A stretch of DNA of 64,000 bases from Verrucomicrobiota bacterium (GCA_039815375.1 JBCBZJ010000018.1:1-64000); one strand, 5' to 3'. Shown: positions 1 through 28,270, numbered from the stretch's first letter. Notes: generated by a model not told the origin, from the letters alone. Translations and numbers: made by a program.

Positions 1-522
<522 letters not shown>

Positions 523-1488: not shown

Positions 1489-1652
1489 TATGTTCTTTTC
1501 AAGATGAAGCTTCAGGACAAACAAAGTTGATGTGCAACCAAGAATATAAAACTCAGATACGTTATATTCGTTATCACGATTTTAAAGCTATGGATAACTT
1601 TGGCTTTTTTTGTCTATGTATTGAATGAATCCTGCGAAATTAGTTATAATTT

Positions 1653-2999: not shown

Positions 3000-3440
3000 A
3001 GATTTGGTTTTTTAGATAGGCTGTTAGTCGCGCAGACTTCCTTATATGTTAATCGCACTATTTGTTAGTGCTCTCGACAAGTATTTTCGCAATTCGCATT
3101 TTGCAGTGTATCTCAATGCAAGTCTATGCGTCGCGAGTGTGGACTGAAGCGCAACCCCTGAATTCTACGTGTATTTAGGTTAGTCTACCGCATTTAAGGA
3201 GAAATAATGCGCTACCCTACAAATGTTTTTTGCATTGTAATGCGAATCTCTGATTCCGGCGTCTTCCGGAAGGCCCATACTTCTAGATTATTGGTGGGAT
3301 ATTGTGACCACGAGTCTGTGTGGCTAATAAAAAAAGGTTTGTATCGGTGATCATACACCGTACCACCGACATAAAAAGCGGCGCAGACTAAGCCTCGTGA
3401 AGTGGGCAGGAAGTCTGATTCCGAATTGCGGCTCTCGAAT

Positions 3441-4061: not shown

Positions 4062-4176
4062 AGTGGATAAAGCTAGCCTTTGCCATTAGCCTAATGTCAA
4101 CGTTAAAGGCAATGGATCGAATGTCAGTCATGAAACAAAGGATGCTTGAACCGCAGATAACAAATTTTGTAATAAG

Positions 4177-4851: not shown

Positions 4852-4852
4852 T

Positions 4853-6642: not shown

Positions 6643-6999
6643 GCAGATTCGGTTTTAGGGAGAAGGTTAGAGTCTTCCAATAAATTCCATGAGAAAATCG
6701 TTTTCGATTCTGATTTTGCAATTTCTTATAAGCCTGCCTTGAAAGAATCGATAATGTGCGTGAAAAAATGTTGTTTCGTCTGCTGATATAACTCGGATCA
6801 AGAGCTCACAAGTGGCAAGGGAATCAGACTGAAAGTGTGAGTAGGATTCGTATCGAGCTGCGTCGCTCATCTTACAAAAACACGTCTATAGGTGAATTTT
6901 TGGCCATCAACAGTCTGTTTTAACACAAATTTTGGTATTAAATATCGCTTTGACGGATCGATGGCTTTCCCTTCTCATCCGCGCTTTTCGATTTGAGCC

Positions 7000-8274
7000 A
7001 TGATTGATATTAAGCTCCTCCGTGAGCAGCCGGAACAAACTAAGGCTGCCATCGCCAATAAGAAATTTTCCTGTGACATCGATGCTGTCTTGAAACTCGA
7101 TGAGACTCGTCGTGCAAAAATCACTGAGGCTGAAACGGCTCGAGCTCAGCAGAAGGCCGCAAATCAGGAAATGGCCGGGCTTCAAAAAGGCTCGCCTGAG
7201 TTTCTTGAAAAAGTGCAGCAGATGAAGGCCATCGCAGCTGGTGCGAAGGATTTGGAAGCGTCGGCAAAAGAGGCAGACGAAGCCTTTCAGGCCGCTTTTC
7301 TGGAGATCCCGAATCTGCCGGATCCATCGGTTCCGCTTGGTAGGGGGGAGGACGAGAACGTGGTGGCCTCGACTTGGGGCGATGCGGACGCGGAGTTTCC
7401 AAATGCACTGCCGCACTTCGATATCCCTTGGTTTGAGTCGCGGATCGACTTTGCCCGTGGGGTTAAGGCGACGGGTGCTGGTTTTCCGTTCTATGTTGGC
7501 GAGATGTCGAGGTTGGTTCGTGCGCTGGTTAATTTCTTTTTACAGGAAGCGCAGTCCAATGGCTATGAAGAGGTGCTGCCCCCGATTGTGGTGAATGCAG
7601 AGAGCGCGACCGCGACCGGCCAACTTCCTGACAAAGAAGGCCAGATGTATGTCGACGAAAATGAAGGGCTTTACCTTGTCCCAACAGCGGAGGTCCCGGT
7701 GACCAACTTTTACCGAGACGAGATTCTCGATTCGAATCAGCTCCCCATTTATCGTTGTGCCTACACGCCTTGTTTCCGTCGTGAAGCAGGTAGTTGGGGC
7801 GCTCATGTGCGCGGCTTGAATCGGCTTCATCAGTTTGATAAAGTCGAATTGGTTAAATGGACCGATGCCGAAACCAGCATGGAAGAGCTCGAAAAGCTGC
7901 GGGACAATGTCGAAAGCACTTTGCAAAAGTTGGGTCTCCCTTACCGCGTGCTTCGGATGTGCACCGGTGATATTGGATTCCCTCATGCGAAGCAGTATGA
8001 CTTGGAAGTATTTGCTGCTGGGCAGAAACGCTGGCTGGAGGTTTCAAGTTGCTCCAACTTCACCGATTTCCAGGCACGGCGTGCTGGTATTCGTTATCGC
8101 GGTCCAGATGGAAAGCCTGTTACTGCGCACACCCTAAACGGGTCGGGCCTTGCTGTGCCGCGAGTGCTTGCGGCAATTCTCGAAAATAATCTTCAATCGG
8201 ATGGCAGGGTTAAGGTGCCGGATTGCCTTCAATACTGGATGCAGCAAGAGTTTATTGGTGAGATCATAAGCTGA
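7000..8274 (+). CDS. serS: seryl-tRNA synthetase
   Basis: N-terminal coiled-coil arm (MIDIKLLREQPE...) and class II core motifs (FRREAGSWGAHVRGLNRLHQFDKVE; GSGLAVPR). Confidence 0.95.
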   Translation: MIDIKLLREQPEQTKAAIANKKFSCDIDAVLKLDETRRAKITEAETARAQQKAANQEMAGLQKGSPEFLEKVQQMKAIAAGAKDLEASAKEADEAFQAAFLEIPNLPDPSVPLGRGEDENVVASTWGDADAEFPNALPHFDIPWFESRIDFARGVKATGAGFPFYVGEMSRLVRALVNFFLQEAQSNGYEEVLPPIVVNAESATATGQLPDKEGQMYVDENEGLYLVPTAEVPVTNFYRDEILDSNQLPIYRCAYTPCFRREAGSWGAHVRGLNRLHQFDKVELVKWTDAETSMEELEKLRDNVESTLQKLGLPYRVLRMCTGDIGFPHAKQYDLEVFAAGQKRWLEVSSCSNFTDFQARRAGIRYRGPDGKPVTAHTLNGSGLAVPRVLAAILENNLQSDGRVKVPDCLQYWMQQEFIGEIIS

Positions 8275-8704: not shown

Positions 8705-10225
<1,521 letters not shown>

Positions 10226-12106: not shown

Positions 12107-12373
12107 CTAGAGCGAAATGACACCGGGGACTTGAGCGACTCTTTGGTAAATCGCGATTACTTCGTCACATGAGTGCACGTTCATTTCCATCGTGTATGCA
12201 ATGAAGCGTCCGCTGGAGGACTCATTGGCTTGAACCGGGTCATCCGCAAAGAGTTCCAACACAGTCTCAGCCTGATCCCTGGGAACGATGAACTTGAACG
12301 GATAGATCGAAGGCCAATCGTAGTTCGCATCCAATGAGGAACGAAATGAGTCTAGTGTGCCGTCTTTTAGCAT
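12107..12373 (-). CDS. DUF493 (YbeD-like) family protein
   Basis: YPFKFIVP motif typical of YbeD (FP..F..K.IG). 88 aa. Confidence 0.55.
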   Translation of the reverse strand: MLKDGTLDSFRSSLDANYDWPSIYPFKFIVPRDQAETVLELFADDPVQANESSSGRFIAYTMEMNVHSCDEVIAIYQRVAQVPGVISL

Positions 12374-12483: not shown

Positions 12484-12582
<99 letters not shown>

Positions 12583-12681
12583 ACCATTCAGTGAAGTTAA
12601 AAGAGTGATGGTAAGCTTTTAGCTATGTGGTCGGCTCGGCTGGCAGAGAAGAACCGAAGGTGAAGTATAAAAGTCCTTTAG

Positions 12682-13104
12682 CTATTCGCTTCCGAGAGAA
12701 CCCAGCAACCTAAGCAGATCTGCTTTTGATAGTTTCTCAATGTAGCCCATTTCTCGTCGTTTAAAGTAAAACAAGGCACCCTCCTTTTGGGGCTCTATGA
12801 AGAAACACTCCCATCTTTCGTTTCCTGCTTCATTAAGAAATTCGGTCAATTTCTCTGGATCTTTTCCTTTGATTTCTAGAACGAGATACCTCCAGTCGCC
12901 GATTTTTTCAAAGTCTTTTTGAGCGGCATCCTTCAACTGTGAGGGTATTTCTCTATCTTTTACTTTCTCATCATACAGCCGCTTCGCCTTGTCCCAGTAG
13001 GATTCCTCTACTTCAGCTGCTTTGATGACATTCACATCGGCATGTGAGAATGATTGTATGCCTGCTAGGAACAGAGTGGCTGCTAGAGCTATATTTGGGT
13101 TCAT
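12682..13104 (-). CDS. secreted hypothetical protein
   Basis: N-terminal signal peptide (MNPNIALAATLFLAGIQSFSHA). Last gene of a three-gene minus-strand unit inside the putative island. Confidence 0.5.
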   Translation of the reverse strand: MNPNIALAATLFLAGIQSFSHADVNVIKAAEVEESYWDKAKRLYDEKVKDREIPSQLKDAAQKDFEKIGDWRYLVLEIKGKDPEKLTEFLNEAGNERWECFFIEPQKEGALFYFKRREMGYIEKLSKADLLRLLGSLGSE

Positions 13105-13149
13105 GGTTGTTCGTGTCTGTGTGGATTCTCACGGCGGCGGCGCGGCTCG

Positions 13150-13551
13150 CTACTTCAATGCGCTTGTAACGGCTTCTCTAAAGGCATATTCGCGCGGGTC
13201 CTCACCATCGGATCTGAAGAGCTCTGTGACCGAGTTAAGTGCCTTTCGTTTGCCTGCTTCCGATGTGATGCGTGTACTCAGTGACTGAAGAAACTCATTC
13301 TGAAGATTCTCGTTTGCGATGGATTGCCGCACCTTGTCCGTAGCAGTATTGATATAAAGATCGACCGGCGTGCTCGAATTCCAATCCAGAAGCTCGATTT
13401 TGTTTTTCAGGACATTGTCCTCTGAGAAGGAAAGATGGTTGTCCATATAGATACCAAAGAGAAGAAGGTCTACAATCGCTTCTCGTTCTGTCTGATTTAG
13501 GCCATCAGCCGAATTTTTCTCTGGTTGGAATAATTTTTCTAATATTTTCAT
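13150..13551 (-). CDS. hypothetical protein
   Basis: 133-aa ORF, co-directional and spaced 45-47 nt from its neighbours. Confidence 0.45.
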   Translation of the reverse strand: MKILEKLFQPEKNSADGLNQTEREAIVDLLLFGIYMDNHLSFSEDNVLKNKIELLDWNSSTPVDLYINTATDKVRQSIANENLQNEFLQSLSTRITSEAGKRKALNSVTELFRSDGEDPREYAFREAVTSALK

Positions 13552-13598
13552 AGTAAAATCTTTATTTTTGTTTTCCAGGTATCGACTTTGACGAAGTC

Positions 13599-14066
13599 TT
13601 ACCGAAGGTTAATCTCTCGCATCTTATCGAAATCTCCGCGTTCACAGGCGTTTACGAATCCCTCAGCATAAGACTTTAACGTGTCCCAGCGCTTACGAAT
13701 TTGTTCAGCTTCTTCCTCTGTTATACGCTCGTCGATACCAGCGTTCGCGATTTCTCCAAGTAGAGAAGCGAACTGGCTGACCATTTCATGAGTTGCAGGG
13801 CTCAAGTTGTAAGCGTTTGAAGATAAGGGATCGTTGGAAACGAAGTAGCCACCTGACTTGGCAGCCAGCCATTTAACGAGTCGATTGTCCCCAGCTGCTT
13901 CGTTTAGAGCGGTAACGCGGTCTAGCGGGTTTCGCGATCCGCTCTGGTTCTCGCCTGCGGGTTGCGACCACTTGTAAATCAGAGATTGAGAGATCCCAAG
14001 ATCAGCTGCGATTGCCTTTGGAGGGCTATCCAAGAAGCAACTTTTTATTATTTCGTGTGATTGCAC
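13599..14066 (-). CDS. phage CII/CP76-like helix-turn-helix regulatory protein
   Basis: HTH AIAADLGISQSLIYKW followed by an AAGDNRLVKWLA segment resembling the GDN-L motif of P2-type CII (CP76) regulators. GTG start. It is transcribed divergently from the yqiJ-like operon. Confidence 0.5.
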   Translation of the reverse strand: MQSHEIIKSCFLDSPPKAIAADLGISQSLIYKWSQPAGENQSGSRNPLDRVTALNEAAGDNRLVKWLAAKSGGYFVSNDPLSSNAYNLSPATHEMVSQFASLLGEIANAGIDERITEEEAEQIRKRWDTLKSYAEGFVNACERGDFDKMREINLR

Positions 14067-14112
14067 ATGTAAGGATGTCTAAAAAATGCCCATCTGGGCA
14101 AGGTGATTATAG

Positions 14113-14142
14113 TTGGTTACAAAATCTCTCGCCTATTATAAT
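14113..14142 (+). promoter_or_regulatory. candidate sigma70-type promoter of the yqiJ-like operon (TTGGTT-18-TATAAT)
   Basis: Perfect TATAAT at 14137-14142, 41 nt upstream of the ATG at 14184. A TTG-containing -35 lies 18 nt upstream. Confidence 0.3.
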
Positions 14143-14183
14143 TTATCTAATCACGATGCTGAGCTAGTATCCTCAATGATCCC

Positions 14184-14861
14184 ATGTTAGAAGAACTCTT
14201 CAGTGAAGCTCTGCGCTGGTATAATTTACCATGGAGCATTTTGTTGGCACTAACGACGCTATATTGGCTCATCGCGATTGCCGGGATGATCGATTTCGAT
14301 TTTCTTGATTTTGACTTCGATTTTGATGCCGATGTGGATGTTGACGTCGATGCGGATGTTGATGTCGATGCAAACGTAGGAGGAGGCGCTTTTGCGGGTG
14401 TCCTTGAGTTTATACATTTAGGTAGTTTGCCGCTGATGGTGGTCGTTTCCGGTCTTGTAATCTGTGCATGGTCGCTCGCACTAATTGGAAATTTCTACTT
14501 GAACCCAATGAATATTGGCCTCATCGGCTTTGGGATATCCGTTGCGGTTGCCTTGCCCGGTATCGTGATCTCCTCTCTGGCACTTTGGCCGGTCGCGCAT
14601 TTTTACAAGCGCCTGGAGAAAGATACTGATGGCAACCTGACTATGATCGGGAGAACCTGCAAAGTCCGATCGGATCGTGTTGATAGTAGTTTTGGTCAAG
14701 CGGAGGTAAGCACTTCGGAGGGTCCTTTGGTCGTTAACGTGAGACTCGCTACTGAGAGTGGTCCTCTTGTTGAAGGCGATTCGGCGCTTATTATCAGCGA
14801 AGATACGAAGCACATGATCTACACAATCAGGAAAATTTCTAACGAATTAACAAAAATCTAA
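14184..14861 (+). CDS. YqiJ/NfeD-like inner-membrane protein (flotillin partner, C-terminal OB-fold)
   Basis: Architecture and several blocks align with E. coli YqiJ (IHLGSLPLMVVV; C-terminal GDSALII beta domain). The N-terminal loop carries a (DF)n/(DV)n acidic repeat. Confidence 0.7.
   Translation: MLEELFSEALRWYNLPWSILLALTTLYWLIAIAGMIDFDFLDFDFDFDADVDVDVDADVDVDANVGGGAFAGVLEFIHLGSLPLMVVVSGLVICAWSLALIGNFYLNPMNIGLIGFGISVAVALPGIVISSLALWPVAHFYKRLEKDTDGNLTMIGRTCKVRSDRVDSSFGQAEVSTSEGPLVVNVRLATESGPLVEGDSALIISEDTKHMIYTIRKISNELTKI
14292..14372 (+). repeat. in-frame hexanucleotide tandem repeat (GAT-TTY / GAT-GTN) encoding DFDFLDFDFDFDADVDVDVDADVDVDA
   Basis: Read directly: gat ttc gat ttt ctt gat ttt gac ttc gat ttt gat gcc gat gtg gat gtt gac gtc gat gcg gat gtt gat gtc gat gca. 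Confidence 0.8.
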
Positions 14862-14873
14862 CTATAGAAAGAT

Positions 14874-16946
14874 ATGACATACTCACTAGCAATAATTGAA
14901 TCCGTGGGGCTTGCGGTCATCCTAGGCATCGTTGCGGTGCTCATCGGACTGCTTGTAACCATTATCAAGATGTATCAAAAGGTTGACCAGGGCTATGCCC
15001 TTGTCAGGAATGGGGCAGGTGGGACTAGCGTTTCATTCGCTGGCATGGTCAGTGTCCCGATATTTCATAAACTGGAAATCATGGACTTGCGGGTTCAGCA
15101 CTTGCCGCTGGACCGCCGGGGTAAGGACGGTCTTATCTGTCGTGACAACGTGCGTGCCGACATTAGTGTTGGCTTCTACGTGCGGGTGAATCCTCACGAA
15201 AATGATGTGAAGGCGGTTGCGAAGGCTGTTGGTTGTGAGCGTGCCTCCGATCTCGACAAGATTCGCGAGCTCTTTGACGCCAAGTTCTCGGAAGCTCTAA
15301 AGACAGCAGGTAAGCAATTTGATTTCGAGAGTCTCTACACGGACCGTATTGATTTTCGGAATAAGATCATCGAAGTGATCGGCCAGGACCTGAACGGCTA
15401 TGCGCTCGAGGATGTGGCGATTGACTATCTTGAGCAAACACCGCTTGAAGCGATGAACCCGGATAACATTCTCGACTCTGAAGGTATAAAGAAGATTACC
15501 GAACGGACTGCGGCGCAGGCGATTCTCGAGAACGAGATTCAAAATAGACGTATCCGCACGATTAAGCAGAACGATGTTCAGCGCGTGGAGGCGGTCTTGG
15601 AGCTTGAAAAGCAGCAGGCTGAAGCGGAGGAGAAGCAGAAGCGCGAAGTGTCTGTGATTCGTTCTCGTGAGGAAGCTGAGGCCAAGCGGGTCGCTGAAGA
15701 ACAGCGTCTGCGTGCGGAGCAAGCTCACATTAACACCGAGGAAGAGCTCCAAATTGCGACGCAGAATATGGAACGCCAAGTTATTGTTGCTGAAAAAAGC
15801 AAGCAAAAGACCGAAGCTGTTGAAACAGAGCGTGTTGAGCGGGATCGCCAGTTAGAGGTCGTCGAACGTGACAAGGTAACAACGCTCGCCGATATCGAGA
15901 AGACGAAGGCTGTCGAAGTCGAGAAGCGTAACATTCAGGATGTGATCAAGGAACGCGTAATGGTCGAAAAGACTGTCGTGGTCGAACAGGAGAAGATTAA
16001 GGACACTGAAGCATTTGCGGGTGCAGATCGTCAAAAGCGTGTTGCGATCACGGATGCTGAAGAAAAGGCTGAGCAAGAGAAGCTCATTCGCCTGAAGCAG
16101 GCAGAAGCCAGTCAGGAAGCTGAAAAGCTTAAGGCTGATGAAGAGTTCTATAATGAAGTTCGTCGTGCTGAATCCAGCAAGCGAGCGACCGAGCTATCTT
16201 CCGAAGAAATGATTATCGCTGCCGAGGCTGAGGAGGCTTCTTCTGTGAAGCAAGCTGAAGCAAAGAAGAATATTGCCGAAGCCACCGCAGCTGAGACTGC
16301 AGCCATTGGATTGGGTGAAGCCCAGATCATGGAAGCCAAGGCGTCTGCTAGCCTGAAGCAAGGTGAGGCAGATGCGAAGTCTTCCGAACTTAAGTTCGAG
16401 GCAGACGCTAAGGGTATAACCGAGAAGGCGGCTGCGATGAAGCTCTTCAATGAGTCCGGTAAGGAGCATGAAGAGTTCAAACTCCGCCTCGAAAAGGACA
16501 AGGAGATCGAACTCGAGAGCATCCGCGTCGAAGAGGATATTGCTCGCCACCAGGCTCAAGTGCTCTCCGAATCGCTTAAGAATACTAAAGTCGATATTGT
16601 CGGTGGCAGTGCAGAATTCTACAATGACATTATAGGAGCCGTCACACGCGGTAAGTCTTTCGAGCGCACAATTAACAGTAGCCCAGCTTTGACGGATGTG
16701 AAGGAGACCTTCTTTAATGGAGATCCTGAGTATTTTCGCGCGCAGATTGCGAACTGGTTGAGCGACTTCAACATCAGTGTTGAAAGTGTAAAGGACCTTT
16801 CGGTTGCAAGCTTTATGCTAAAGTTAGCTTCAGAAACGAGCGACGAAGAGAAGCTAAACCACATCCGTGGGTTGTCAGGTATGGCTGAGAAGTTTGGGTT
16901 TGCGAATGAGACCATCCAGAATCTGCTCTCCCTCGGGCAGAAGTAG
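14874..16946 (+). CDS. flotillin family (SPFH/band 7) protein, YqiK/FloT-like, with an extended E/A/K-rich coiled coil
   Basis: The N-terminal TM and SPFH domain align closely with E. coli YqiK (VRNGAGG...VPIFHKLE...). It starts 12 nt after the yqiJ-like stop. Confidence 0.85.
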   Translation: MTYSLAIIESVGLAVILGIVAVLIGLLVTIIKMYQKVDQGYALVRNGAGGTSVSFAGMVSVPIFHKLEIMDLRVQHLPLDRRGKDGLICRDNVRADISVGFYVRVNPHENDVKAVAKAVGCERASDLDKIRELFDAKFSEALKTAGKQFDFESLYTDRIDFRNKIIEVIGQDLNGYALEDVAIDYLEQTPLEAMNPDNILDSEGIKKITERTAAQAILENEIQNRRIRTIKQNDVQRVEAVLELEKQQAEAEEKQKREVSVIRSREEAEAKRVAEEQRLRAEQAHINTEEELQIATQNMERQVIVAEKSKQKTEAVETERVERDRQLEVVERDKVTTLADIEKTKAVEVEKRNIQDVIKERVMVEKTVVVEQEKIKDTEAFAGADRQKRVAITDAEEKAEQEKLIRLKQAEASQEAEKLKADEEFYNEVRRAESSKRATELSSEEMIIAAEAEEASSVKQAEAKKNIAEATAAETAAIGLGEAQIMEAKASASLKQGEADAKSSELKFEADAKGITEKAAAMKLFNESGKEHEEFKLRLEKDKEIELESIRVEEDIARHQAQVLSESLKNTKVDIVGGSAEFYNDIIGAVTRGKSFERTINSSPALTDVKETFFNGDPEYFRAQIANWLSDFNISVESVKDLSVASFMLKLASETSDEEKLNHIRGLSGMAEKFGFANETIQNLLSLGQK

Positions 16947-17039
16947 ATTTGTGATTTTTCAGCATGATCCGGGCGGCAGCGTAATTTCTATGTGCTGTTT
17001 TGTACGAATCGGCTGCAACTTTTCGAGACTAGGATAACT

Positions 17040-20000
17040 ATGGGAAGCGAAAATTCAGCAGGAGATCAGAAACTAGAGGGTGGTGCCTACGAAGTGATTC
17101 GTAACCGACTCACCGCTCAAAGCTCTGAGCTCTTGAGCCGAGTGCAGAAGCTTGATCAGGAGCGGAAGAAAGTTTTTGGTGCGACGGATACGCAACTACT
17201 TGCGACTGATCGTATCCAAACGGCCAATAATTGTATCCCGCGAGGGATGATCGCACTTCCGGGTGGACGGTTCATCTTTGGTTACAACGTTCACATGGGG
17301 CTGAAGTCCCAGATAGAGGTGACTGATGTATTTGCCAAGTTCCGCTACGAGCCTGCAGACCATTCCTTTCATGAAGAGCCTCTAGTTGCGCTCCAGTCGA
17401 GTGAATTTCAGGCGGACTTTCAGTATCTCTATAAATACTACAAGAAGACCTTCTTTGCGAAGTTCATGATCAGTGGGCCTCACTTGCTGATGGTCTTTCA
17501 GGTCAGCGAAGACGTAAGAGATGTTAAGGTCTTTAAGTGGCTGATCGAAGGAGAGAGCCTGAGCTATCTCGGAAACCGGTTCGAGCATGAATATGCCTTT
17601 CCGGATCAGCATTCGTTTACTTGGATCCGTGCGCACCGCGACCTTCACCGGACAGGGAGTTTTCCTCATGTTTCGATCGATGACCGACTTTTCGTCGAGA
17701 CGACAGGCGGCGATCTCACCATTAAGATCGAAGACAACACTGATAGCGGTGAAGGTATCTACTCAGAGCCGGTCGAGAATTCCGATCAGACACTCGACGA
17801 TGCCGACATCCACTACGCTAGTGTGGACAGTCTTGTTTTCCTACGGATAAAGCCCTACCAGGAGAAGGAGACACGCTACTTCATTTACAATGAAAAGGTT
17901 AAGGAGGTGAAGCGTGTGGATTCCGTCGAGCATGCCTGCGTTCTTCTTCCCGAGGACCACGGCGTGATTTTTGCGAATGGTTACTATCTACACAATGGTG
18001 AGTTTAAGCGCTTCGGTGATTCCGAGGGCGAAATGACATTTGAGCGTGTGGTGAAGGCGCCAAATGGTGAAGACTACCTTTACGTTTTCTTCCAGCAGAA
18101 GGAGGGCCTGTATCAGCTCCTACCCTACAATATCATCGCGCAGCGGGTCGAAAATCCCATTGAGGCAAACGGCTATACGATTTTTGAGAATGGTTCGTTG
18201 ACCTATTTTAAGGCGCACGAGGAACCACAGAAGCATCATACCCTTCAGGTTTGGCAAACGCCATACTCTGCGGAGGAACAAGCTGTGGAAGCGACGGGAG
18301 ACAGCTTCTTGTTCAAAGTCGGCAATGCGAGTATCGTTCGCTGTATTTCGGAGTGTCACGCGATCTACAATCTACTCCAGCGCGAGGAGGCTTATGAGGG
18401 ATTGTATCTGGATTTGGTAAAGTCCTGCGTGACGACGATTGATAGCTATTTCTGGATTGGTTCAGAAGAGGCCTTCGATCTAAAGGATGTCATCTCTCAT
18501 ATTCGCGATACTGGGCAGTCGGCTATTGCTGAGTTCGATAAGGTTCAACGCATCCGAAAGTCGACACTCGATCAAACCAAGGAAGTTCAGGTTCAGGCTC
18601 GAAAGCTTTTTGCCGAGCTGGCTGGTGTGCAGCCCGAAAATGTTCGAGTCTTCGTTGATCATCTGGCAAACCTGCGGACTTTGCGTGGCGAAGTGATTGG
18701 TCTACGCGAACTGAGATATGTCGACCTGACTCTTTGTCAGGAGCTCGATGAGGGCGTTTCCAAACAGATGGATGAGCTGGCTAAAGCGACAGTTGAATTC
18801 TTGCTTAAGGAAGAGGCGCTTGTTCCATATCGGACGCAGCTTAGCGAGGCTGAAGCCTCAATTGTTGAGGTCAAAACCGCCGCGATGGCGAAGGAGCTTC
18901 TTGAGGAGCTCGATAAGACCGGCGACCAACTGGAGATGCTTATTGAAACGGTTTCGAATCTTAAGATCGAAGATGCTACCGAAACGACGCGCATTATCGA
19001 TAGTATATCCGAGCTCTTCACTGAATTGAACCGATTGAAAGCGGAGGTGAAACGGAACCGCCAGGAGCTCATGCGGAAAGAAGGCTCCGCTCAGTTTCAA
19101 GCACAGATTAAGCTGTTGGAGCAGTCTGTAGCAAATTATCTCGATATCGCCGATGAGCCTGAGCGTTGCGATGAGTTCTTAACCAAAGCGATTGTCCAGC
19201 TTGAGGAGCTTGAAGGGAAGTATGCCGAGTTCGATGAGTTCATTGACATTCTCGCGGACAAGCGGGCCGAGCTCTATAACACTTTCGAATCGAAGAAGAC
19301 GACGCTTCAAGAGGTTCGCAACCGTCGTGTGGGTAAGCTCGCTCAATCGGCTCAGCGCATTCTCGGAGGAATCGAAAATCGCTCGAAAGCTCTAAAAGAG
19401 ATCAATGAGATCAATGGCTATTTCGCGTCGGACCTGATGGTAGACAAGGTCCGTGACCTCGTTAAAGAGCTAAAGGATCTCGGTGAGGCCATGAAGGGTG
19501 ACGAGATCATTACTCGCTTGAAGACGATCCAAGGTGACGCTATACGACAGCTGAAGGATAAGCAGGACCTCTTCGTTGATGGGGAGAACCTCATCAAGTT
19601 CGGTAAGCATCAATTCACGGTAAACACTCAGGCGCTGGAGCTGACTTCGGTATTACGGGATGGTGACCTATATCTTCACCTTTCAGGCACTCAGTTCTAC
19701 GAGAAAGTGGAAGATGCAGAGTTGGTCGCTACGAAGTCTGTCTGGAACATGCATTGTTGCTCCGAGAATGAGACGGTCTATCGTGCTGAGTTCTTAGCGT
19801 ATAAGTTTCTAGAGTCGCAAGACGATGGCAATTATCTCGAACTAGCGGATGAAGAGCGGCTTGAGGCTATCCGCGAGTTTATGTCTCCCCGCTATCAGGA
19901 GGCCTATACGAAGGGCCTGCACGATCTGGATGCACGTTTGATTGTGGATCAGCTGATGACGACACACTTGCATATAGGACTGCTACGATACGGGCCAGAA

Positions 20001-22148
20001 GTTCGAGCGTGCGGGCTTGTCTTCTTGCATAGTCAGGCAGGGCAATGCCTAACCGATCACCTGCAGGAAAGGCTGGACGCTTTTGGCCATATGTTGAGAG
20101 CATTTCCTGATCATCATACGCAGAGGAAATACATTGAGGAGCTAAGCGATGCGATCTCCAAGTTCTGCCTTGAGACTGGGATCTTCGATGAAAAGCTGGC
20201 TCCTCAGGCTGCTGAATATCTGTTCTATGAGATTGTTCAAGATGAAGATATTTATAGTTCCAAGGAGGCCGCTGAGATTTTAGAGAACTTTCGAAAGGAG
20301 TTATCCATCAAGCGAGTGGAGAAGTTCTATCAGCAAGCAATCGAGCAGGTGTCGTCCGATGTTCTTAGCGAGTTCCGCGTAATTCTTGACTGGCTCGAAG
20401 GCTTTGCCACGACGCATTCTTTGAGCCAGGAAACGCGCGCGTTTCTTCCTGAGGCTGCGGCGCATTTTGTGAAGGGTGGGCTTGAGCGCCGCCGCATTCT
20501 CGATGTAGCAATTAAACATGATATCAAAGGGCTCAAGGGGACTCACGGTGCCGTGGGAGAGGGTGGTATCTACCATTTCAATTATCTGGAGTTTATGGAA
20601 CGTCTGCGGGCATTCGAATCCGGAGATCAGGCATTGTTTTTTTCTTACGAGGCCAGAAAAAAGCATGTGCTAGCAGAAAGTACTGAGGAGCTTCGACTGA
20701 GGGAGTTTAAGCCCCAGGTCTTGAGCGCTTTTGTTCGAAACCGCCTGCTAGATGAAGTTTATCTACCATTGATCGGGGACAATCTAGCGAAGCAAATTGG
20801 TAGCACCGGTGAAAATACGCGGACGGACCGTATGGGCCTTCTCCTCCTTATCTCGCCTCCGGGCTATGGTAAGACGACGCTGATGGAATACGTTGCGAAC
20901 CGCTTGGGTATAACATTTGTCAAGGTAAACGGGCCATCCCTTGGGCATGACGTCACGTCTCTAGATCCTTCGCAGTGCGCTAACTCTGCGGCTCGTCAGG
21001 AGGTCGAGAAAATTAATCTAGCCTTCGAGATGGGGGACAATGTGCTCATCTACCTTGACGATATTCAGCACACGAATCCTGAGCTGCTCCAAAAGTTCAT
21101 CTCGCTTTGTGATGGCACGCGAAGAATTGAGGGTGTCTACAAAGGCAAGTCCCGGACCTACGATTTCCGGGGTCGAAAGGTTGCTGTGGTTATGGCAGGT
21201 AATCCATATACCGAAACTGGTGGAAAGTTCCAAATTCCGGACATGTTGGCGAATCGCGCTGACACCTATAATCTGGGTGATATTATCGGCGAGAACAGCA
21301 AGTATTTCGAGGCGTCGTATGTAGAGAATTCACTAACATCGAATCGCACCTTGGGGATTCTTGCCGGTAAGTCCCGGAAGGATGTCTATGCAGTCATGCA
21401 GATTGCGGAGACGGGTCAACGCGAGGGAGTAAGCTTCGAATCGTCGTATTCTATGGAAGAGATCAACGATATGGTTTCTGTGATGAAGAAGATGATGCGT
21501 GTTCGAGATACCATTCTCCGTGTCAATCTTGAGTATGTGGGATCTGCCGCACAGGCGGATGACTATAGAACAGAGCCTTCGTTTAAGCTTCAGGGATCGT
21601 ATCGTAACATGAACCGGATCGCAGAGAAACTCTTGCCGATCATGACCGATGAGGAGGTTGAGCAATTGATCATCGACCACTACACAGGTGAAGCGCAGAC
21701 CTTGACCAACGGAGCCGAAGCCAATTTGCTCAAGTTCAAAGAAATTGAAGGCAAGTTGAGCGTTGAAGACCTGAGCCGCTGGAACGAGATCAAGAAACGC
21801 TTCAATCGTAAGAAATTACTCGGAGGAAGCGAGGGTGACCCCGTGAATCGTGTGGTGGCACAGCTAGCCGATTTCAATGAAGGGCTAAACGAGATCGGTA
21901 GCGAGATTGCGAAGGGCAACAGTTCGAATCAGGACGGTATTAGCCAAGCGCTGAATCATCTCGCGGAGACTATCCAGAGCCAGTCGGCCCTTCCGAAGGA
22001 TGGAATAGTTGATGTCGGGCCGGGCTCACGTGAGCTTAGCGTAAAACTGGATAAGTCCTCGGTTACGGTTTTGAATGCCTTACTCGGATCAATGCAATCG
22101 CTGCTGAGTCAGGTCTCCGTCGATAGTGGGAAGGAGGAAAAGAAATAG
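17040..22148 (+). CDS. 1,702-aa uncharacterised protein with a long central coiled coil and a C-terminal AAA+ ATPase domain (AAA_5/MoxR-dynein-like)
   Basis: Single P-loop LLLISPPGYGKTT at nt 20862-20879, a Walker-B-like VLIYLDDIQH (~21043-21072) and an arginine-containing sensor region. About residues 520-900 are heptad-rich (E/L/K/R). I place the start at ATG 17040, which has AGGA 6 nt upstream; the track used an upstream GTG at 16992. The gene lies 93 nt after flotillin with no terminator in the gap. Confidence 0.8.
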   Translation: MGSENSAGDQKLEGGAYEVIRNRLTAQSSELLSRVQKLDQERKKVFGATDTQLLATDRIQTANNCIPRGMIALPGGRFIFGYNVHMGLKSQIEVTDVFAKFRYEPADHSFHEEPLVALQSSEFQADFQYLYKYYKKTFFAKFMISGPHLLMVFQVSEDVRDVKVFKWLIEGESLSYLGNRFEHEYAFPDQHSFTWIRAHRDLHRTGSFPHVSIDDRLFVETTGGDLTIKIEDNTDSGEGIYSEPVENSDQTLDDADIHYASVDSLVFLRIKPYQEKETRYFIYNEKVKEVKRVDSVEHACVLLPEDHGVIFANGYYLHNGEFKRFGDSEGEMTFERVVKAPNGEDYLYVFFQQKEGLYQLLPYNIIAQRVENPIEANGYTIFENGSLTYFKAHEEPQKHHTLQVWQTPYSAEEQAVEATGDSFLFKVGNASIVRCISECHAIYNLLQREEAYEGLYLDLVKSCVTTIDSYFWIGSEEAFDLKDVISHIRDTGQSAIAEFDKVQRIRKSTLDQTKEVQVQARKLFAELAGVQPENVRVFVDHLANLRTLRGEVIGLRELRYVDLTLCQELDEGVSKQMDELAKATVEFLLKEEALVPYRTQLSEAEASIVEVKTAAMAKELLEELDKTGDQLEMLIETVSNLKIEDATETTRIIDSISELFTELNRLKAEVKRNRQELMRKEGSAQFQAQIKLLEQSVANYLDIADEPERCDEFLTKAIVQLEELEGKYAEFDEFIDILADKRAELYNTFESKKTTLQEVRNRRVGKLAQSAQRILGGIENRSKALKEINEINGYFASDLMVDKVRDLVKELKDLGEAMKGDEIITRLKTIQGDAIRQLKDKQDLFVDGENLIKFGKHQFTVNTQALELTSVLRDGDLYLHLSGTQFYEKVEDAELVATKSVWNMHCCSENETVYRAEFLAYKFLESQDDGNYLELADEERLEAIREFMSPRYQEAYTKGLHDLDARLIVDQLMTTHLHIGLLRYGPEVRACGLVFLHSQAGQCLTDHLQERLDAFGHMLRAFPDHHTQRKYIEELSDAISKFCLETGIFDEKLAPQAAEYLFYEIVQDEDIYSSKEAAEILENFRKELSIKRVEKFYQQAIEQVSSDVLSEFRVILDWLEGFATTHSLSQETRAFLPEAAAHFVKGGLERRRILDVAIKHDIKGLKGTHGAVGEGGIYHFNYLEFMERLRAFESGDQALFFSYEARKKHVLAESTEELRLREFKPQVLSAFVRNRLLDEVYLPLIGDNLAKQIGSTGENTRTDRMGLLLLISPPGYGKTTLMEYVANRLGITFVKVNGPSLGHDVTSLDPSQCANSAARQEVEKINLAFEMGDNVLIYLDDIQHTNPELLQKFISLCDGTRRIEGVYKGKSRTYDFRGRKVAVVMAGNPYTETGGKFQIPDMLANRADTYNLGDIIGENSKYFEASYVENSLTSNRTLGILAGKSRKDVYAVMQIAETGQREGVSFESSYSMEEINDMVSVMKKMMRVRDTILRVNLEYVGSAAQADDYRTEPSFKLQGSYRNMNRIAEKLLPIMTDEEVEQLIIDHYTGEAQTLTNGAEANLLKFKEIEGKLSVEDLSRWNEIKKRFNRKKLLGGSEGDPVNRVVAQLADFNEGLNEIGSEIAKGNSSNQDGISQALNHLAETIQSQSALPKDGIVDVGPGSRELSVKLDKSSVTVLNALLGSMQSLLSQVSVDSGKEEKK

Positions 22149-22168
22149 GCCAACCGAGTGGGTTGGCC
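22148..22168. terminator. perfect 8-bp stem hairpin GGCCAACC-gagtg-GGTTGGCC between convergent genes; likely terminator for pspA, possibly bidirectional
   Basis: Read directly. A T-rich tract lies on the minus strand immediately after the stem (complement of gaaaagaaatag). Confidence 0.4.
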
Positions 22169-22195
22169 TACTGTTAGACTAGTAGAGCCTAAAGC

Positions 22196-22945
22196 TCAGC
22201 TTGTCTTATCTTTTTCCTGCTCCTTCTCAGTGATGATGAGTGGAATCTCGTCACCTTCAGATTCAATACCAGTCGTAAATCCAAGCTCTCCGGAGAGGCT
22301 TTTGAGTGCTTCATGTGCGAGTGCTTTCTCTTCGGACTCACTTGGGATATCAAAAGTAGGCATCGCATCCTTCGCAACGCGCTCTCGGCCAGCAGCCTTT
22401 GCACGCGCATCTTCAACCATGTTCTCAAGTCGACTGAGTGTTTCACTAGCGCCACCCATATCGGCTGTCATGCTACTGGCCATTTCCGAGAGGTCTGCTG
22501 TCGCTTCCTTAACCTTAAGCTCGTTGATTTTGCTTTGAAGCGTTTCAATCTTCTTTTGTGCCTCTTTAACGCTCGCTTCCCGGTTTCGAGTCATCTCTTG
22601 GTAAGTCCGCTCTGAGGCTTCCAGTTGATCGCGGTTTGTCGCCAGCTCTGTGCGAACTTCGTTGAGTTTGAGTGCTTGCCTGCCCGCAAGCTCTTGATTG
22701 CCGGCTGTTACGTTTGACTTAATCTTTGTCAATAGTTGCGTCTCCTGTTCTTCCTGACCTTTGACCTGAGCAATCAACTTCTCAACCATTGCTGCATGGG
22801 CAGCAAGACCCTGATTATAACGTTGAATTTGCTTTCGAAGATTCTCCTTCTCTGCCCCTAGGAGCGCATCGGGGTTTGTTTTCTCTAGTTCTGTGATAGC
22901 AGAACCAAAGATGCTTTTGAAAAAATGTAAGATTCTTTTTATCAT
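22196..22945 (-). CDS. pspA: PspA/IM30 (Vipp1) family protein, bacterial ESCRT-III-like
   Basis: N-terminal amphipathic helix and the ELEKTNPDALL...ENLRKQIQRY...A block are similar to PspA/Vipp1 (KAEDPEKVL...). The protein is predicted coiled coil throughout. 249 aa. Confidence 0.7.
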   Translation of the reverse strand: MIKRILHFFKSIFGSAITELEKTNPDALLGAEKENLRKQIQRYNQGLAAHAAMVEKLIAQVKGQEEQETQLLTKIKSNVTAGNQELAGRQALKLNEVRTELATNRDQLEASERTYQEMTRNREASVKEAQKKIETLQSKINELKVKEATADLSEMASSMTADMGGASETLSRLENMVEDARAKAAGRERVAKDAMPTFDIPSESEEKALAHEALKSLSGELGFTTGIESEGDEIPLIITEKEQEKDKTS

Positions 22946-23128
22946 TTCACCAGCATACTAAGCCATTTTCTGCTTACCATTATAAATTTCTTCAATTTTT
23001 CTCCTCCATAGAGCAAATAGACATTACGAATCTGCCATACTAGTTTCAAAGGCTGAATCCCACTTTCGCAAGTGGCAGATAAACAAAGCTAAGTGAAATT
23101 AGGTGCAAATTTAGGAAAACTGAAAGCC

Positions 23129-23166
23129 GGTTCAAGTCCTGCCCAGAGCACTACTGCAATTGTATC
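23129..23166 (+). repeat. right copy of the imperfect 38-bp direct repeat of the tRNA-Leu 3' end; candidate attR remnant
   Basis: GGTTCAAGTCCTGCCCAGAGCACTACTGCAATTGTATC. The T-arm-like part cannot base-pair (CCGG/CCTG), so it is not a second tRNA. Confidence 0.45.
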
Positions 23167-23274
23167 TGTGATTATTCATGCGGATGTCTTTTTTGCGGGA
23201 TTTTTTGAACGGAGGACTAGTTTTCGCGTCTATCTATGCATAACACTTAGTTGTAGTTAGTTTGTTGTTTAGAA

Positions 23275-23305
23275 ATGCCGTCCATCCGGGCGGCATTTTT
23301 TTTTT
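23275..23305 (+). terminator. rho-independent terminator (ATGCCG...CGGCAT stem plus T10)
   Basis: atgccgtccatccgggcggcat followed by ten T. There is no same-strand CDS within 1.1 kb upstream. Confidence 0.6.
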
Positions 23306-23367
23306 GCAAAGCGGAAACTCTCTGAAACTGGGGTTGCCAGTCCGGATAATTTGTTTAATTTAGTGGC

Positions 23368-23820
23368 ATGCCCCTCAAAAAAGTTAGTGTTTCTGTTCTC
23401 CTGAAAGAGAAAAGCTCCTCGGTCTACTGTGTCTCCGAGGAGACCACGGTTGATGCCGCTGTTGCTGAGATGAATCGTTATCGCATCGGTTCGATCATGG
23501 TCAAGAAAGACGGCAAGATAGTCGGTATATTCACGGAACGTGACGTATTGACCAGATTGGTTTCTGCGGGGCGCGATCCCAAAACGACTGATGTTCGGGA
23601 AGTGATGACGCGGGATTTCAAGCAGATTCAACCCGATACATCCGTTGAGGACGCGATGCAGTTGATCACGGACAAACGCGTGCGGCACTTGCCGGTGCTG
23701 AATGGCGACGAGCTGGTTGGAATGATATCAATCGGCGATGTCACTCGCTGGCTACTGAAAGTGAACGAGATGGAGGCAGAGAACCTCCGCCGATATGTTT
23801 TTTCGGAGTATCCGGGCTGA
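23368..23820 (+). CDS. CBS domain pair protein
   Basis: Two CBS motifs (IGSIMVKKDGKIVGIFTERDV; RHLPVLNGDELVGMISIGDV). Confidence 0.8.
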   Translation: MPLKKVSVSVLLKEKSSSVYCVSEETTVDAAVAEMNRYRIGSIMVKKDGKIVGIFTERDVLTRLVSAGRDPKTTDVREVMTRDFKQIQPDTSVEDAMQLITDKRVRHLPVLNGDELVGMISIGDVTRWLLKVNEMEAENLRRYVFSEYPG

Positions 23821-23885
23821 TCCGTGACAAGTTTGTTTGATTGTTACGAAATAGAGTCTTTTTGCTTGCAAATCGTAACATAGGC

Positions 23886-24404
23886 ATGTGTCTAAAAAAT
23901 GTGCCTAATGTTTACACTAAGTTATTTCGCCGAAAAAAAAGTAGTCTCTTAGTTAATCGAATCGAAGCTTCGCAGGATTCGGAAAAGAACTCTGCTCATG
24001 ATGCCTCCGGAGATGGCTCAGATGACTCACGAGCGCTTCAGGTTTGGATCTATCCGGATACGCCGGAATTAAAAAAGCAGACACTTATGCGCCCGCGCCA
24101 GATACACGGTCCGGTATTTACAATCGGTCGACGTAAATCAAGCTCTACGATCAATAGCATGGAGTCGCTACCGGATTTGTGCATCAACGATCAACAGCCC
24201 TATTCGGTTTCTAGAAATCATTGTCAAATCGAGCTTCGTTCCGGTCGTGTCTTTTTGAAAGATCTGGATAGTCGTATAGGCACCCGATTGGGAGACAAGC
24301 GTCTGGGAGGTGGAAGCAGCTTCAGTGTGGGTGTAGGTGAGCACAAGTTGATTTTGGGCAGGCAGAGTAAAGGTTATTGTTTCCGGTTGGTCGTTTCTGA
24401 GTAG
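23886..24404 (+). CDS. FHA domain protein; start uncertain
   Basis: FHA core GPVFTIGR...SVSRNHCQIE...GRVFLKDLDSRIGTRL. The ATG at 23886 is the first ATG. ATG 24087 would give the domain alone. The track start at 23841 is a TTG. Confidence 0.6.
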   Translation: MCLKNVPNVYTKLFRRKKSSLLVNRIEASQDSEKNSAHDASGDGSDDSRALQVWIYPDTPELKKQTLMRPRQIHGPVFTIGRRKSSSTINSMESLPDLCINDQQPYSVSRNHCQIELRSGRVFLKDLDSRIGTRLGDKRLGGGSSFSVGVGEHKLILGRQSKGYCFRLVVSE

Positions 24405-24496
24405 AGCGGCGTTTTCTGCAATCGGCTTGACTCGTCGCATCGAGTGCGTCGACATTTCCGCTTTAAATCGCAATCTCTCAGTAGAAAGGAATTCAG

Positions 24497-24805
24497 ATGG
24501 CTGGTGTCGGAAAATTACTCAAACAAGCTCAAAAAATGCAGAAACAGATGGAGGCTATTCAGCAGGAGCTTGCTGAGACTGTCTTGGAGGTTTCCAGCGG
24601 TGGCGGTGCCATTACTATAAAAGTTAATGGGCAGGGCGAGTTTCAGAATTTTAAAATCGACCCGGAGTTTCTCAAAGAGGATGCCGAATTTGTCGAAGAA
24701 ACTCTGCTTTCGGCGGTTCAGGAAGCTGCGACAAAGGCTAAAGAAACCAGCGAAGAAGCCATGGGTGCTGTAACCGGTGGCATGGGAGGCTTTCCGGGCT
24801 TGTAG
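24497..24805 (+). CDS. ybaB: YbaB/EbfC nucleoid-associated protein
   Basis: LLKQAQKMQKQMEAIQQEL...GGGAITIKVNG signature. AAAGGA RBS. Confidence 0.9.
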   Translation: MAGVGKLLKQAQKMQKQMEAIQQELAETVLEVSSGGGAITIKVNGQGEFQNFKIDPEFLKEDAEFVEETLLSAVQEAATKAKETSEEAMGAVTGGMGGFPGL

Positions 24806-24817
24806 GATTCAGTCACT

Positions 24818-25414
24818 TTGACGCCTGCTTACGATAGCTTGTTGCAGCAGCTCAAGCGCTTGCCGGGTCTAGGCTATCGCTCGGCCGAGCGAATCGCTAT
24901 GCATCTCTTGGTTGAGAGTCCGGAAGAGTTATCCGAGCTGATTGATTCTTTAGGTAACGCGAGATCCGCAGTTGGCCGTTGCAGGATCTGTGGGAATATC
25001 GCTGAAGATGAGATCTGCGGGATTTGTGCTGATGAAAGGCGCGACAGAAATAAGGTCTGTGTTGTCGAGCATGTCCCGGATCTGCTTGCAATTGAGCGCT
25101 CGGCAGCCTGGAAGGGCACTTACCATGTGCTGCACGGCAAACTCTCGCCGATTCATGGTGTAGGTCCTGAGAAATTGAACTTCAAGGCACTCAAGCAGCG
25201 TATTGAGGCCGGTGAGATCGCGGAGTTTGTGCTCGCGTTGTCGAACGATATCGAAGGTCAAGCTACTTGCCACTACATCCAGGAAGAACTGGTGGGTGAT
25301 CGCCCTATTGAAGTGACTCGGATCGGGTTCGGCTTGCCCAGTGGGGGCGGTGTGACCTATGCGGACTCGGTAACTTTACGAAGTGCACTTGAGGGACGCA
25401 CAGCCTACGAATAG
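24818..25414 (+). CDS. recR: recombination protein RecR
   Basis: HhH motif LPGLGYRSAERIAMHLL, a C4 zinc finger CRICGNIAEDEICGIC and a Toprim domain. It has a TTG start in the track and is immediately downstream of ybaB. Confidence 0.9.
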   Translation: MTPAYDSLLQQLKRLPGLGYRSAERIAMHLLVESPEELSELIDSLGNARSAVGRCRICGNIAEDEICGICADERRDRNKVCVVEHVPDLLAIERSAAWKGTYHVLHGKLSPIHGVGPEKLNFKALKQRIEAGEIAEFVLALSNDIEGQATCHYIQEELVGDRPIEVTRIGFGLPSGGGVTYADSVTLRSALEGRTAYE

Positions 25415-26812: not shown

Positions 26813-28270
26813 CTATTTGAATCGATATTCTGAAGCTTTGTTGTGAAAAGGCACGCGTCGCTTACTTGCCGGTGTAACAAGGGTAGGTCTCGGCGCATCA
26901 ACTTCATCGGCCCGATTGCGGGTGATGTCAGCCCACCGCAGAGCGATGAAAAGCGATGTAAAGAAGCTAAAGCAAACTGTGGGTGACATAAATGGAGTAT
27001 CGCCAAAGGATAAGCCGACGATAACGGCACATCCAATGAGTAAGTGGTTTGTCAGTTGTATGTCGTGGCGACCTCTGACATAACGAAAGATGAGGATGAG
27101 GATCAAAGTAATCGGAAACGCGACGCCGATTAAGCCTACTTCTGAAAGGAATTGGAAGAGGTCGTGCTCAGCACGCTCATAGTTTTGACCGACGAGGAGA
27201 TCGCTTCCGTAGAGAGGCAGGAGAATTTCGAAGCTATCAATTCCCCATCCGAAAAGCGGACTTTCCTTGAAGAGGTCAAGTGCTGCCTGCCGCAAGCTCT
27301 CGCGATCCATCGGGTGCACGGGTTTCTGGAAAATCGTGATTAGTGCGGATGCGAACATTGCCGAAGAAGCCAAGCCGGTAAGTATGCTGATGGGGCGTGA
27401 GTTGGGATCTTTGATCTTAATAAGAAAATTCATCGAGACTAACATCAGCATCGCCGACAGAGTCAGCATGAGTAGAGCCGCTGGCCATCGGGCTTCGACC
27501 AGATAAGCAGTTGAGCCGAGCAATATCCCACCACTTAGATACCACGGTCCGGTTGACTCGATAAACGGTGGGCTGTCATTGTAACGGCTCACAAGAAGCG
27601 ACATACTAATGTTGATACAGGTCCAAATAATCGCGAATGCGGCCCAGTGACCATCGTAAGGATAGCAACTGAAAAAGTCTAACTGGCCTGTTCCGTCAGT
27701 AAAGAGCGGAGCGGAAAGAGTCAGACCTTCTTGTATATAGCCAAAAATTGCGACCAGAACAGAACTGAGGCAGAGCCAAGGGAGCAGGCGCTCGAAGAAA
27801 GCACGTGACTTTGGCACAATGAAGAGGTTGATCGTTACAAGATAGACCGCACAATATCCGAGCATCGTTGTCCAAGTGCTCTGGCTTCCAGTGCTGATTG
27901 GCAGCCAGCTTGTGACCGGCTCAAGATGCATAAACTCTTCTTTACCTACACGGACCGTGCTGACCGGATCCTGAAATATGCCGACCAGATATTGCATAAG
28001 CAAGATCCACAAAGGCGCTGTGCAGAGCCAGAATTTTGGCCAGAGAAAGTTAACAAAAAAGGGGTGGGTGGCCTCGTGGGTCTTGAGAATGACTACGGTC
28101 ATGCCTCCGGCAATGAGGAAAAGCCCCAAGAGCCAGTAAGAGCGGGGGTCAGCGAGCCAGAAAGTCAGGTTCGCGGTAATGAGGATAGTCGTGAAAAGAA
28201 GATTCTCCGCCGGAGTGAAAGTATCACGAAGGAGTATATCACGAGGGAGTAGATTGACGTTTTGTCCCAT
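26813..28270 (-). CDS. O-antigen ligase/polymerase-like (Wzy_C) polytopic membrane protein
   Basis: About 10-12 TM helices with a large periplasmic loop. General Wzy_C-like organisation. Confidence 0.55.
   Translation of the reverse strand: MGQNVNLLPRDILLRDTFTPAENLLFTTILITANLTFWLADPRSYWLLGLFLIAGGMTVVILKTHEATHPFFVNFLWPKFWLCTAPLWILLMQYLVGIFQDPVSTVRVGKEEFMHLEPVTSWLPISTGSQSTWTTMLGYCAVYLVTINLFIVPKSRAFFERLLPWLCLSSVLVAIFGYIQEGLTLSAPLFTDGTGQLDFFSCYPYDGHWAAFAIIWTCINISMSLLVSRYNDSPPFIESTGPWYLSGGILLGSTAYLVEARWPAALLMLTLSAMLMLVSMNFLIKIKDPNSRPISILTGLASSAMFASALITIFQKPVHPMDRESLRQAALDLFKESPLFGWGIDSFEILLPLYGSDLLVGQNYERAEHDLFQFLSEVGLIGVAFPITLILILIFRYVRGRHDIQLTNHLLIGCAVIVGLSFGDTPFMSPTVCFSFFTSLFIALRWADITRNRADEVDAPRPTLVTPASKRRVPFHNKASEYRFK

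Follow-up and report, generated by a model that had tools for sequence, protein, structure and literature searches.

The window analysed here is a stretch of 64,000 nucleotides from a Verrucomicrobiota bacterium (GCA_039815375.1, JBCBZJ010000018.1:1-64000). It carries an intact tRNA-Leu(taa) gene and, 10.6 kb downstream of this gene, a degenerate same-strand copy of its 3′ end. The two copies enclose a densely coding segment (12568-23126) in which intergenic gaps do not exceed 200 nt, the longest being about 180 nt. Three of the enclosed genes form an operon (14184..22148, plus strand), and on either side of the segment lie gene blocks that are syntenic in relatives. The features of the region, in window coordinates, are as follows.

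12107..12373, minus strand: DUF493 gene, followed by MsrA, Endonuclease_NS and ProRS, the left core flank (Pfam; synteny)
12484..12567, plus strand: intact tRNA-Leu(taa), the only tRNA in the window (ARAGORN; Rfam tRNA model, 58.2 bits at 12484-12566)
12543-12582, plus strand: proximal, attL-type repeat copy, made up of the last 25 nt of tRNA-Leu(taa) and 15 nt of flank
12682..13104, minus strand: 140-aa ORF with a signal-peptide-like N-terminus and no significant family, absent from every locus compared
13150..13551, minus strand: TerB-like small protein of 133 aa (Pfam TerB PF05099, via homologues)
13599..14066, minus strand: CP76/CII-like regulator, divergent from the module operon (Pfam PF06892, 9e-08; PHROG 101)
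14184-14861, plus strand: YqiJ_N-like membrane protein, operon gene 1 (Pfam)
14874-16946, plus strand: 690-aa protein without a Pfam domain, operon gene 2 (Pfam scan)
16992-22148, plus strand: 1718-aa DUF3686-DUF7902-AAA+ ATPase, operon gene 3 (Pfam)
22196..22945, minus strand: PspA/IM30-like coiled-coil protein, the last enclosed gene (PF04012, 6.8e-08, just under the gathering score)
23127..23166, plus strand: decayed partial tRNA-Leu 3′ end, putative attR-type scar (alignment; 31/40 identical, 11-nt core GGTTCAAGTCC)
23201..23310, plus strand: conserved non-coding block with a strong intrinsic terminator at its end (terminator scan; conserved with L293 6130-6251, L294 and L295)
23368..25414, plus strand: CBS, FHA, YbaB and RecR genes, the right core flank (Pfam; synteny)

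Aligning 12545-12582 with 23129-23166 gives 30 identical positions out of 38 on the same strand, with an exact 11-mer (GGTTCAAGTCC), as the first-pass annotation of this DNA had read the pair. The repeat can be extended 5′ by two bases (GC) past one mismatch, so that 12543-12582 is matched by 23127-23166 at 31 of 40 positions. It reaches 15-16 nt beyond the 3′ end of tRNA-Leu(taa), in agreement with the 16 nt first reported. The distal copy spans the 5′ strand of the T-stem, the T-loop, the 3′ strand of the T-stem, the 3′ acceptor strand, the discriminator base and the 15-nt flank. Similarity sets in abruptly with the 5′ strand of the T-stem, the exact core covers the T-loop, and alignment of the sequence upstream of the distal copy showed no resemblance to the 5′ half of tRNA-Leu or to its upstream flank. 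Mismatches are distributed as 4 in the 25 tRNA-derived positions (16%) and 5 in the 15 positions of the flank (33%), a pattern that fits one constrained copy in the tRNA part and two free copies in the flank.

When the tRNA region was compared with 400-nt tiles of the window, the distal copy reached a local alignment score of 42, and all other places on both strands scored 26 or less. In 150 first-order Markov simulations of the window, best scores averaged 25.9 (sd 2.0) with a maximum of 34, and the match is beyond chance because its score lies above that maximum. The 11-mer might have turned out to be a common intergenic motif, which would have spoken against the att reading; it is not one, since GGTTCAAGTCC occurs exactly twice within the 64 kb. 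A second exact repeat, the 13-mer TTCTTCAATTTTT at 12568-12580 and 22986-22998, was considered as an alternative att site and set aside, as its score of 26 equals the window background and the repeat is probably due to chance. This 13-mer sits directly after tRNA-Leu and again 141 nt upstream of the distal copy, and one Logan contig of the source run starts at 22998, the end of its second occurrence.

The distal copy is neither a tRNA nor a tRNA pseudogene in the cloverleaf sense, as had been claimed from the first reading; ARAGORN detects no tRNA at 23.1 kb, nor does the Rfam tRNA model at E<=1. Its T-arm forms a weak hairpin with a C.U mismatch at −2.8 kcal/mol, no better than that of shuffled sequences (z −0.5), compared with −8.8 kcal/mol for the real T-arm.

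The closest species representatives belong to Puniceicoccaceae, Thalassobacterium and Coraliomargarita, with CBS proteins of 73-81% identity. Nothing closer than about 81% protein identity was found, whether for CBS in species-representative genomes and a collection of 5.8 billion proteins or for MsrA in JGI metagenomes. The order ProRS-EndoNS-MsrA-DUF493 is syntenic in about 15 metagenome contigs, and CBS-FHA-YbaB-RecR is syntenic in loci L004-L006 and L293-L298. Among the relatives' loci compared, none joins DUF493-tRNA-Leu to CBS, that is, none presents an empty site. In a tRNA scan of L083-L098, tRNA-Leu(taa) adjoins DUF493(-MsrA) in five relatives, with the orientation of the window in L093 and L094 and the inverted orientation in L089, L095 and L098, and the DNA after tRNA-Leu differs in each of the five. 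A small inversion or repeated rearrangement at tRNA-Leu is suggested, because the tRNA stays beside DUF493 in both orientations, and the three inverted cases indicate that rearrangement besides simple insertion occurs at this locus. Downstream of tRNA-Leu(taa) in L093 (524-3697) there are genes for a Tn5-like DDE transposase and an IS200-like Y1 transposase, consistent with a variable hotspot. Farther out in the window, positions 1-7000 have a low GC content of 42-47% and carry genes for a GT4 glycosyltransferase and a Kdo/RIO1-like kinase (Logan gene calls on the identical contig), and a Wzy_C O-antigen-ligase-like gene lies at 26813-28270. Cell-envelope glycan loci are thereby suggested on both sides of the region.

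The sites at which elements integrate into tRNA genes include T-loop and anticodon-loop sublocation classes, with crossover sublocations at the anticodon loop, the T-loop and the 3′ end (10.1101/2020.11.02.365908). The repeat of the window, with its sudden onset at the T-stem and its end some 15 nt beyond the gene, has the geometry expected of the T-loop class. Partial tRNA-Leu ends that start at such points are present in the nearest relative, which is represented by the Tara scaffolds L293 (TARA_SAMEA6030669 scaffold_8185), L294 and L295 and has a CBS protein 81% identical to that of the window. Upstream of CBS-FHA-YbaB-RecR, L293 5865-6014 (also L294 1-110) holds two partial tRNA-Leu(taa) 3′ ends on the same strand, separated by a 76-nt spacer, and no full tRNA is found upstream of CBS in L293. 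The first fragment is 55 nt long, runs from the anticodon loop onward and matches the tRNA of the window at 51 of 55 positions; the second is 19 nt long, identical throughout (19/19), and extends from the T-loop up to the 3′ end plus CA. L294 and L295, which are independent assemblies, both include the T-loop fragment and the right flank, and L294 begins with the last bases of the first fragment. Since the two fragment starts coincide with the anticodon loop and the T-loop, two canonical crossover sublocations, L293 looks like the product of two successive integrations, putatively by integrases that belong to different sublocation classes. Before the L293 fragments, the DNA encodes a rhamnosidase and an FG-GAP protein and has no integrase. 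A 108-aa ORF beside the first fragment was considered as an integrase N-terminus and rejected, having no Pfam or PHROG match and no homologue, and the similarity of the sequence upstream of the fragments to the 5′ flank of the window's tRNA is at chance level, being equalled by 384 of 2000 random pieces.

A second instance of duplication is offered by L095, where the 21 nt of the tRNA-Leu 3′ end that begin at the T-loop are exactly duplicated and bound an insert of about 130 nt. The sister locus L098 is without the insert and represents the uninterrupted state, with the tRNA-Leu 3′ end about 8 nt from the DUF493 start codon. The L095 insert (9487-9640, ~130 nt) and the L293 spacer (5920-5995, 76 nt) share GGTGGTCCGGTTCGCTT and TCGCGCCCGGTCTTGTCG, followed by CGGAA, and these common blocks are absent from the window. 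Judged by these shared blocks, the two inserts may represent a miniature element, or else an end that is conserved in a family of tRNA-Leu-targeting elements in Puniceicoccaceae. A 17-mer of the mini-insert was matched in viral contigs by unrelated coding sequences only. The tRNA-Leu end itself is well represented in viral DNA: at least 97 among the 120 IMG/VR viral contigs listed contain the identical 23-nt end as a partial fragment, and in this listing the fragments are often no more than about 100 nt away from where the retrieved stretch ends. Genes for tyrosine integrases, verified by Pfam on three representatives, are located at most 1.5 kb from such fragments. The attL junction of the window was not found in viral contigs.

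The segment between the two copies was searched for traces of mobility. Scans of its seven main ORFs against Pfam, PHROGs, NCBIfam and PADLOC gave no recombinase, transposase or phage structural gene. For a tblastn search we used as queries 119 ORFs that lie no farther than 1.5 kb from a tRNA-Leu fragment on a viral contig, and whose representatives (from the two largest groups and a P4-like form) were verified as PF00589 integrases. The search for recombinase remnants that had been proposed in the first-pass annotation was thereby carried out, and no match below E 0.07 appeared in 12.5-23.2 kb. A weak cluster of matches at 57.7 kb proved to be a glutamate-5-kinase gene (AA_kinase and PUA) and not an integrase. 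Family scans and tblastn thus bear out the original remark that no integrase is recognisable inside: 12568-23126 contains no integrase, excisionase, transposase or remnant of these, and there is no room for an integrase pseudogene because the intergenic gaps are so short. The segment is probably now fixed and immobile, as it holds no recombinase. Logan contigs of SRR22824269 are identical to the window, with breaks at 12513, ~12538, ~16040 and ~23000, and they show no evidence of excision or polymorphism; the assembly is merely fragmented.

The composition of the segment was compared with that of other blocks of its size in the window. Its tetranucleotide distance is 13.5, against 9.9 +/- 1.2 (maximum 13.0) for the other blocks, which overlap one another, and its RSCU distance in codon usage is 0.086, against 0.052 +/- 0.010 (maximum 0.080) for the same kind of overlapping control blocks. 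By both measures it deviates more than any other block of equal size in the window, and the comparison is dominated by a single 5-kb gene. The GC content is 48.5% in the segment and 50.4% in the comparison, with GC and GC3 both in the normal range. Codon and tetranucleotide usage in the segment is mildly atypical, and counts as weak support at most.

Most of the enclosed DNA is made up of a five-gene module (13599-22945, ~9.4 of the 10.6 kb) that comprises the CP76-like regulator, the YqiJ-like protein, the 690-aa protein, the DUF3686-AAA ATPase and the PspA-like protein. Orthologues of the module occur in the same order in relatives at 72-89% identity, to be compared with 73-91% for core proteins. 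The CP76-like orthologue (74-78% identity) holds the same position in the module in L163-L168, PspA-like orthologues (81-82%) lie close to the module in L164-L168, so that the PspA linkage is kept in some relatives, and the divergent promoter region between the CP76-like regulator and the operon is also conserved in relatives. The CII-like gene is therefore not a prophage remnant: it belongs to a conserved chromosomal module, with a regulator orthologue and a kept divergent promoter in relatives, and its reading as a phage relic can be ruled out. Homologues of the DUF3686 ATPase number more than 5000 at E<=1e-10, in Verrucomicrobiota, Planctomycetota and other phyla, and relatives of the ATPase and of the CP76-like regulator were not found in IMG/VR viral contigs. 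For the TerB-like 133-aa protein outside the module, the representative library holds 307 homologues, with PF05099 matched by 13 of 26 aligned homologues; this ORF is not beside the module in the relatives L163-L168.

The neighbourhood of the module differs between relatives. It stands beside rpsL-rpsG-fusA-rpsJ in Coraliomargarita algicola, a Puniceicoccaceae MAG and a JGI contig (the rpsJ-adjacent loci are L163-L168), beside ftsK in an Opitutales MAG (L169) and beside a glucokinase gene in Cerasicoccus (L170). In the six other contexts examined no integrase or tRNA is next to the module, no repeats were found flanking it in relatives, and its neighbours there are not present within the window. 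Its position in the window is derived, because relatives hold it at other loci. Extra module genes were observed in two cases, Band_7 in L170 and SHOCT in L169, and a role as a membrane-stress system is suggested because such genes are added in some versions. No PADLOC defence model matches the module, and no paper mentioning DUF3686 was found in the literature searched. Taken with its core-like divergence and its presence elsewhere without integrase or tRNA, the conserved chromosomal nature of these ~9.4 kb weakens the initial suggestion that 12.6-23.1 kb may be one decayed mobile element, which is at most partly supported.

On its other side the distal copy is followed by the conserved non-coding block, which lies between it and the CBS gene and anchors the homology of its right flank with the nearest relative. 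Within the block, a promoter-like TTGAAC-N18-TCTATC is followed by CATAACAC..GTAGTTAGTTTGTTGTTT and finally by an intrinsic terminator of 13 pairs with a T10 tail, and the pairing of the terminator stem is kept through swapped G-U positions. This arrangement makes the block, which lies immediately before the CBS gene, a candidate for a small RNA with a length of ~65-75 nt. No Rfam family covers it, the best match being ctRNA_p42d at 24.7 bits, under the gathering score. The terminator at 23271-23310 is possibly the old tRNA-Leu terminator; it may belong to the small RNA instead, because the relative has kept the block, which includes a promoter-like site of its own.

We consider it probable that 23127-23166 once formed the 3′ end of tRNA-Leu(taa) and, after displacement, was left behind as an attR-type scar. 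The att-type duplication proposed in the first reading is in this respect upheld, with the sharp T-arm edge, the fragments in L293-L295, the L095/L098 pair and the ends in IMG/VR contigs all in agreement. In the ancestor, tRNA-Leu would have lain between the DUF493-MsrA-ProRS and CBS-FHA-YbaB-RecR genes; we infer the order DUF493 ← / tRNA-Leu → / CBS → because the left flank is tied to tRNA-Leu and CBS is tied to fragments of it. This order would have been interrupted at the tRNA in both the window and the L293 lineages. In the window lineage, a circular DNA with its own copy of the tRNA 3′ end (attP) would have recombined in the T-arm/T-loop by way of a tyrosine-type integrase. The incoming copy would have restored a working tRNA-Leu at 12484-12567, whose present 3′ end pairs perfectly with the 5′ acceptor strand, and the old 3′ end would have been pushed to the far side of the insert at 23127-23166, where it could decay free of selection. 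On this course the old end would have taken on its four changes in the 25 tRNA-derived bases, and the 15-nt flank, free in both copies, its five differences. What remains at the insertion site, 12568-23126, would then be two small genes and the PspA/DUF3686-ATPase stress-type module. Whether this present content came in that one insertion event, as cargo of the integrating element, is a separate matter, and we rate it at slightly under an even chance.

A rather unlikely course of events, though the strongest of the rivals, is that the distal copy is indeed an att scar but was left by an earlier, now lost element, and that the 10.6 kb with its module came later by chromosomal rearrangement and not as cargo, through a translocation or inversion for which the island, the tRNA or other repeats were used. 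The module itself speaks for this, being chromosomal, core-like and integrase-free and yet in a new neighbourhood in nearly every lineage, as do the inversion of the tRNA relative to DUF493 in L089, L095 and L098, the equally ordinary, integrase-free DNA before the L293 fragments and the lack of any mobility-gene trace in the segment of the window. Rearrangement would, however, need more events than a single insertion, and it has to accommodate the fact that the two repeat copies bound the segment exactly, with no leftover foreign DNA besides two small ORFs, and that the whole block is compositionally the most deviant in the window. A further hypothesis in which the module moves would make the att-bounded segment a cis-mobilisable, integrase-less cassette, carrying the PspA/DUF3686-ATPase module. 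Other elements, through their tRNA-Leu-specific integrases, would move this cassette in trans from one chromosomal site to another and from one Puniceicoccaceae genome to another; we regard this hypothesis as improbable.

Explanations that dispense with a recombinase fare worse still. A partial tandem or segmental duplication of the tRNA-Leu region, by slippage or unequal crossing-over and with later loss of the 5′ half, is very improbable. Duplicated tRNA genes and pseudogenes do occur in many genomes, and the fragment includes 15 nt of the lineage's own 3′ flank, but the similarity ends abruptly at the T-stem, beyond which neither the 5′ half nor the upstream flank is matched, partial copies in relatives start exactly at the anticodon loop and the T-loop, and 10.6 kb of unrelated genes separate the two copies here. 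We give the least credence, and very little indeed, to chance similarity or to a functional tRNA-like or T-loop-like motif between the PspA and CBS genes, such as a signal for processing or regulation. The core GGTTCAAGTCC corresponds to the generic T-loop consensus and the fragment is situated in a divergent promoter region, as such a motif might be; against this stand the score of 42 over the simulated maximum of 34, the continuation of the match into genome-specific flank outside the tRNA, a T-arm fold no better than shuffles with no Rfam match, and the presence in the nearest relative of copies that match tRNA-Leu (19/19 and 51/55) at this place instead of a conserved variant motif.

Integration into tRNA genes by tyrosine integrases of P4-like and related elements reportedly leaves direct repeats of the 3′ part of the tRNA. 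The displaced tRNA-Leu end of the window resembles tRNA-integrated islands and prophages in that an intact tRNA forms one end and a partial 3′ copy on the same strand forms the other, in a repeat that starts in the T-arm and has a typical length of ~40 nt, in enclosed genes that relatives do not have at this position, and in the use of a tRNA-Leu(taa) end that serves many proviruses. It departs from them in that mobility genes, an integrase included, are lacking from the segment, the distal repeat has diverged by 22%, and the cargo is a lineage-typical chromosomal module and not foreign DNA. Of the marks by which integrative elements are recognised, the locus thus shows the 3′-part repeat and the canonical crossover start, and lacks a recombinase and cargo from a mobile context. 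CIMEs, described from Streptococcus thermophilus, are att-flanked remnants of integrative elements without recombination and transfer genes, whose att sites are functional and which can be mobilised by an incoming related element. Like them, the segment is flanked by att-type repeats at a tRNA 3′-end target and has no integrase of its own; in contrast to their functional att sites, the distal site here keeps only an 11-nt exact core. The L095 insert and the L293 spacer share with the window the same tRNA, a duplicated part that runs from the T-loop onward and the same family of organisms, but are only 76-130 nt long and have exact repeats, which points to recent or maintained insertions.

The locus is best regarded as an ordinary, old and immobile tRNA-associated insertion scar, of a common kind; only the host group, uncultured Puniceicoccaceae-like Verrucomicrobiota, makes this instance new. 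In annotation, the scar fragment should not be named a tRNA, the CII-like gene should not be named a prophage, and the segment should not be named an active island. The scar dates an old insertion that placed the stress-type module at this site, or left it there. If the hypothesis of a cis-mobilisable cassette were true, it would explain why the module has a different neighbourhood in almost every lineage. Beyond the annotation points and the hotspot described below, the scar is a routine feature of a bacterial genome, and the more unusual biology near it is that of the widespread and unstudied module, together with the candidate small RNA. For the group, the scar marks tRNA-Leu(taa) as a recurrent hotspot of integration and rearrangement in marine Puniceicoccaceae-like Verrucomicrobiota, in which few mobile elements have been described.
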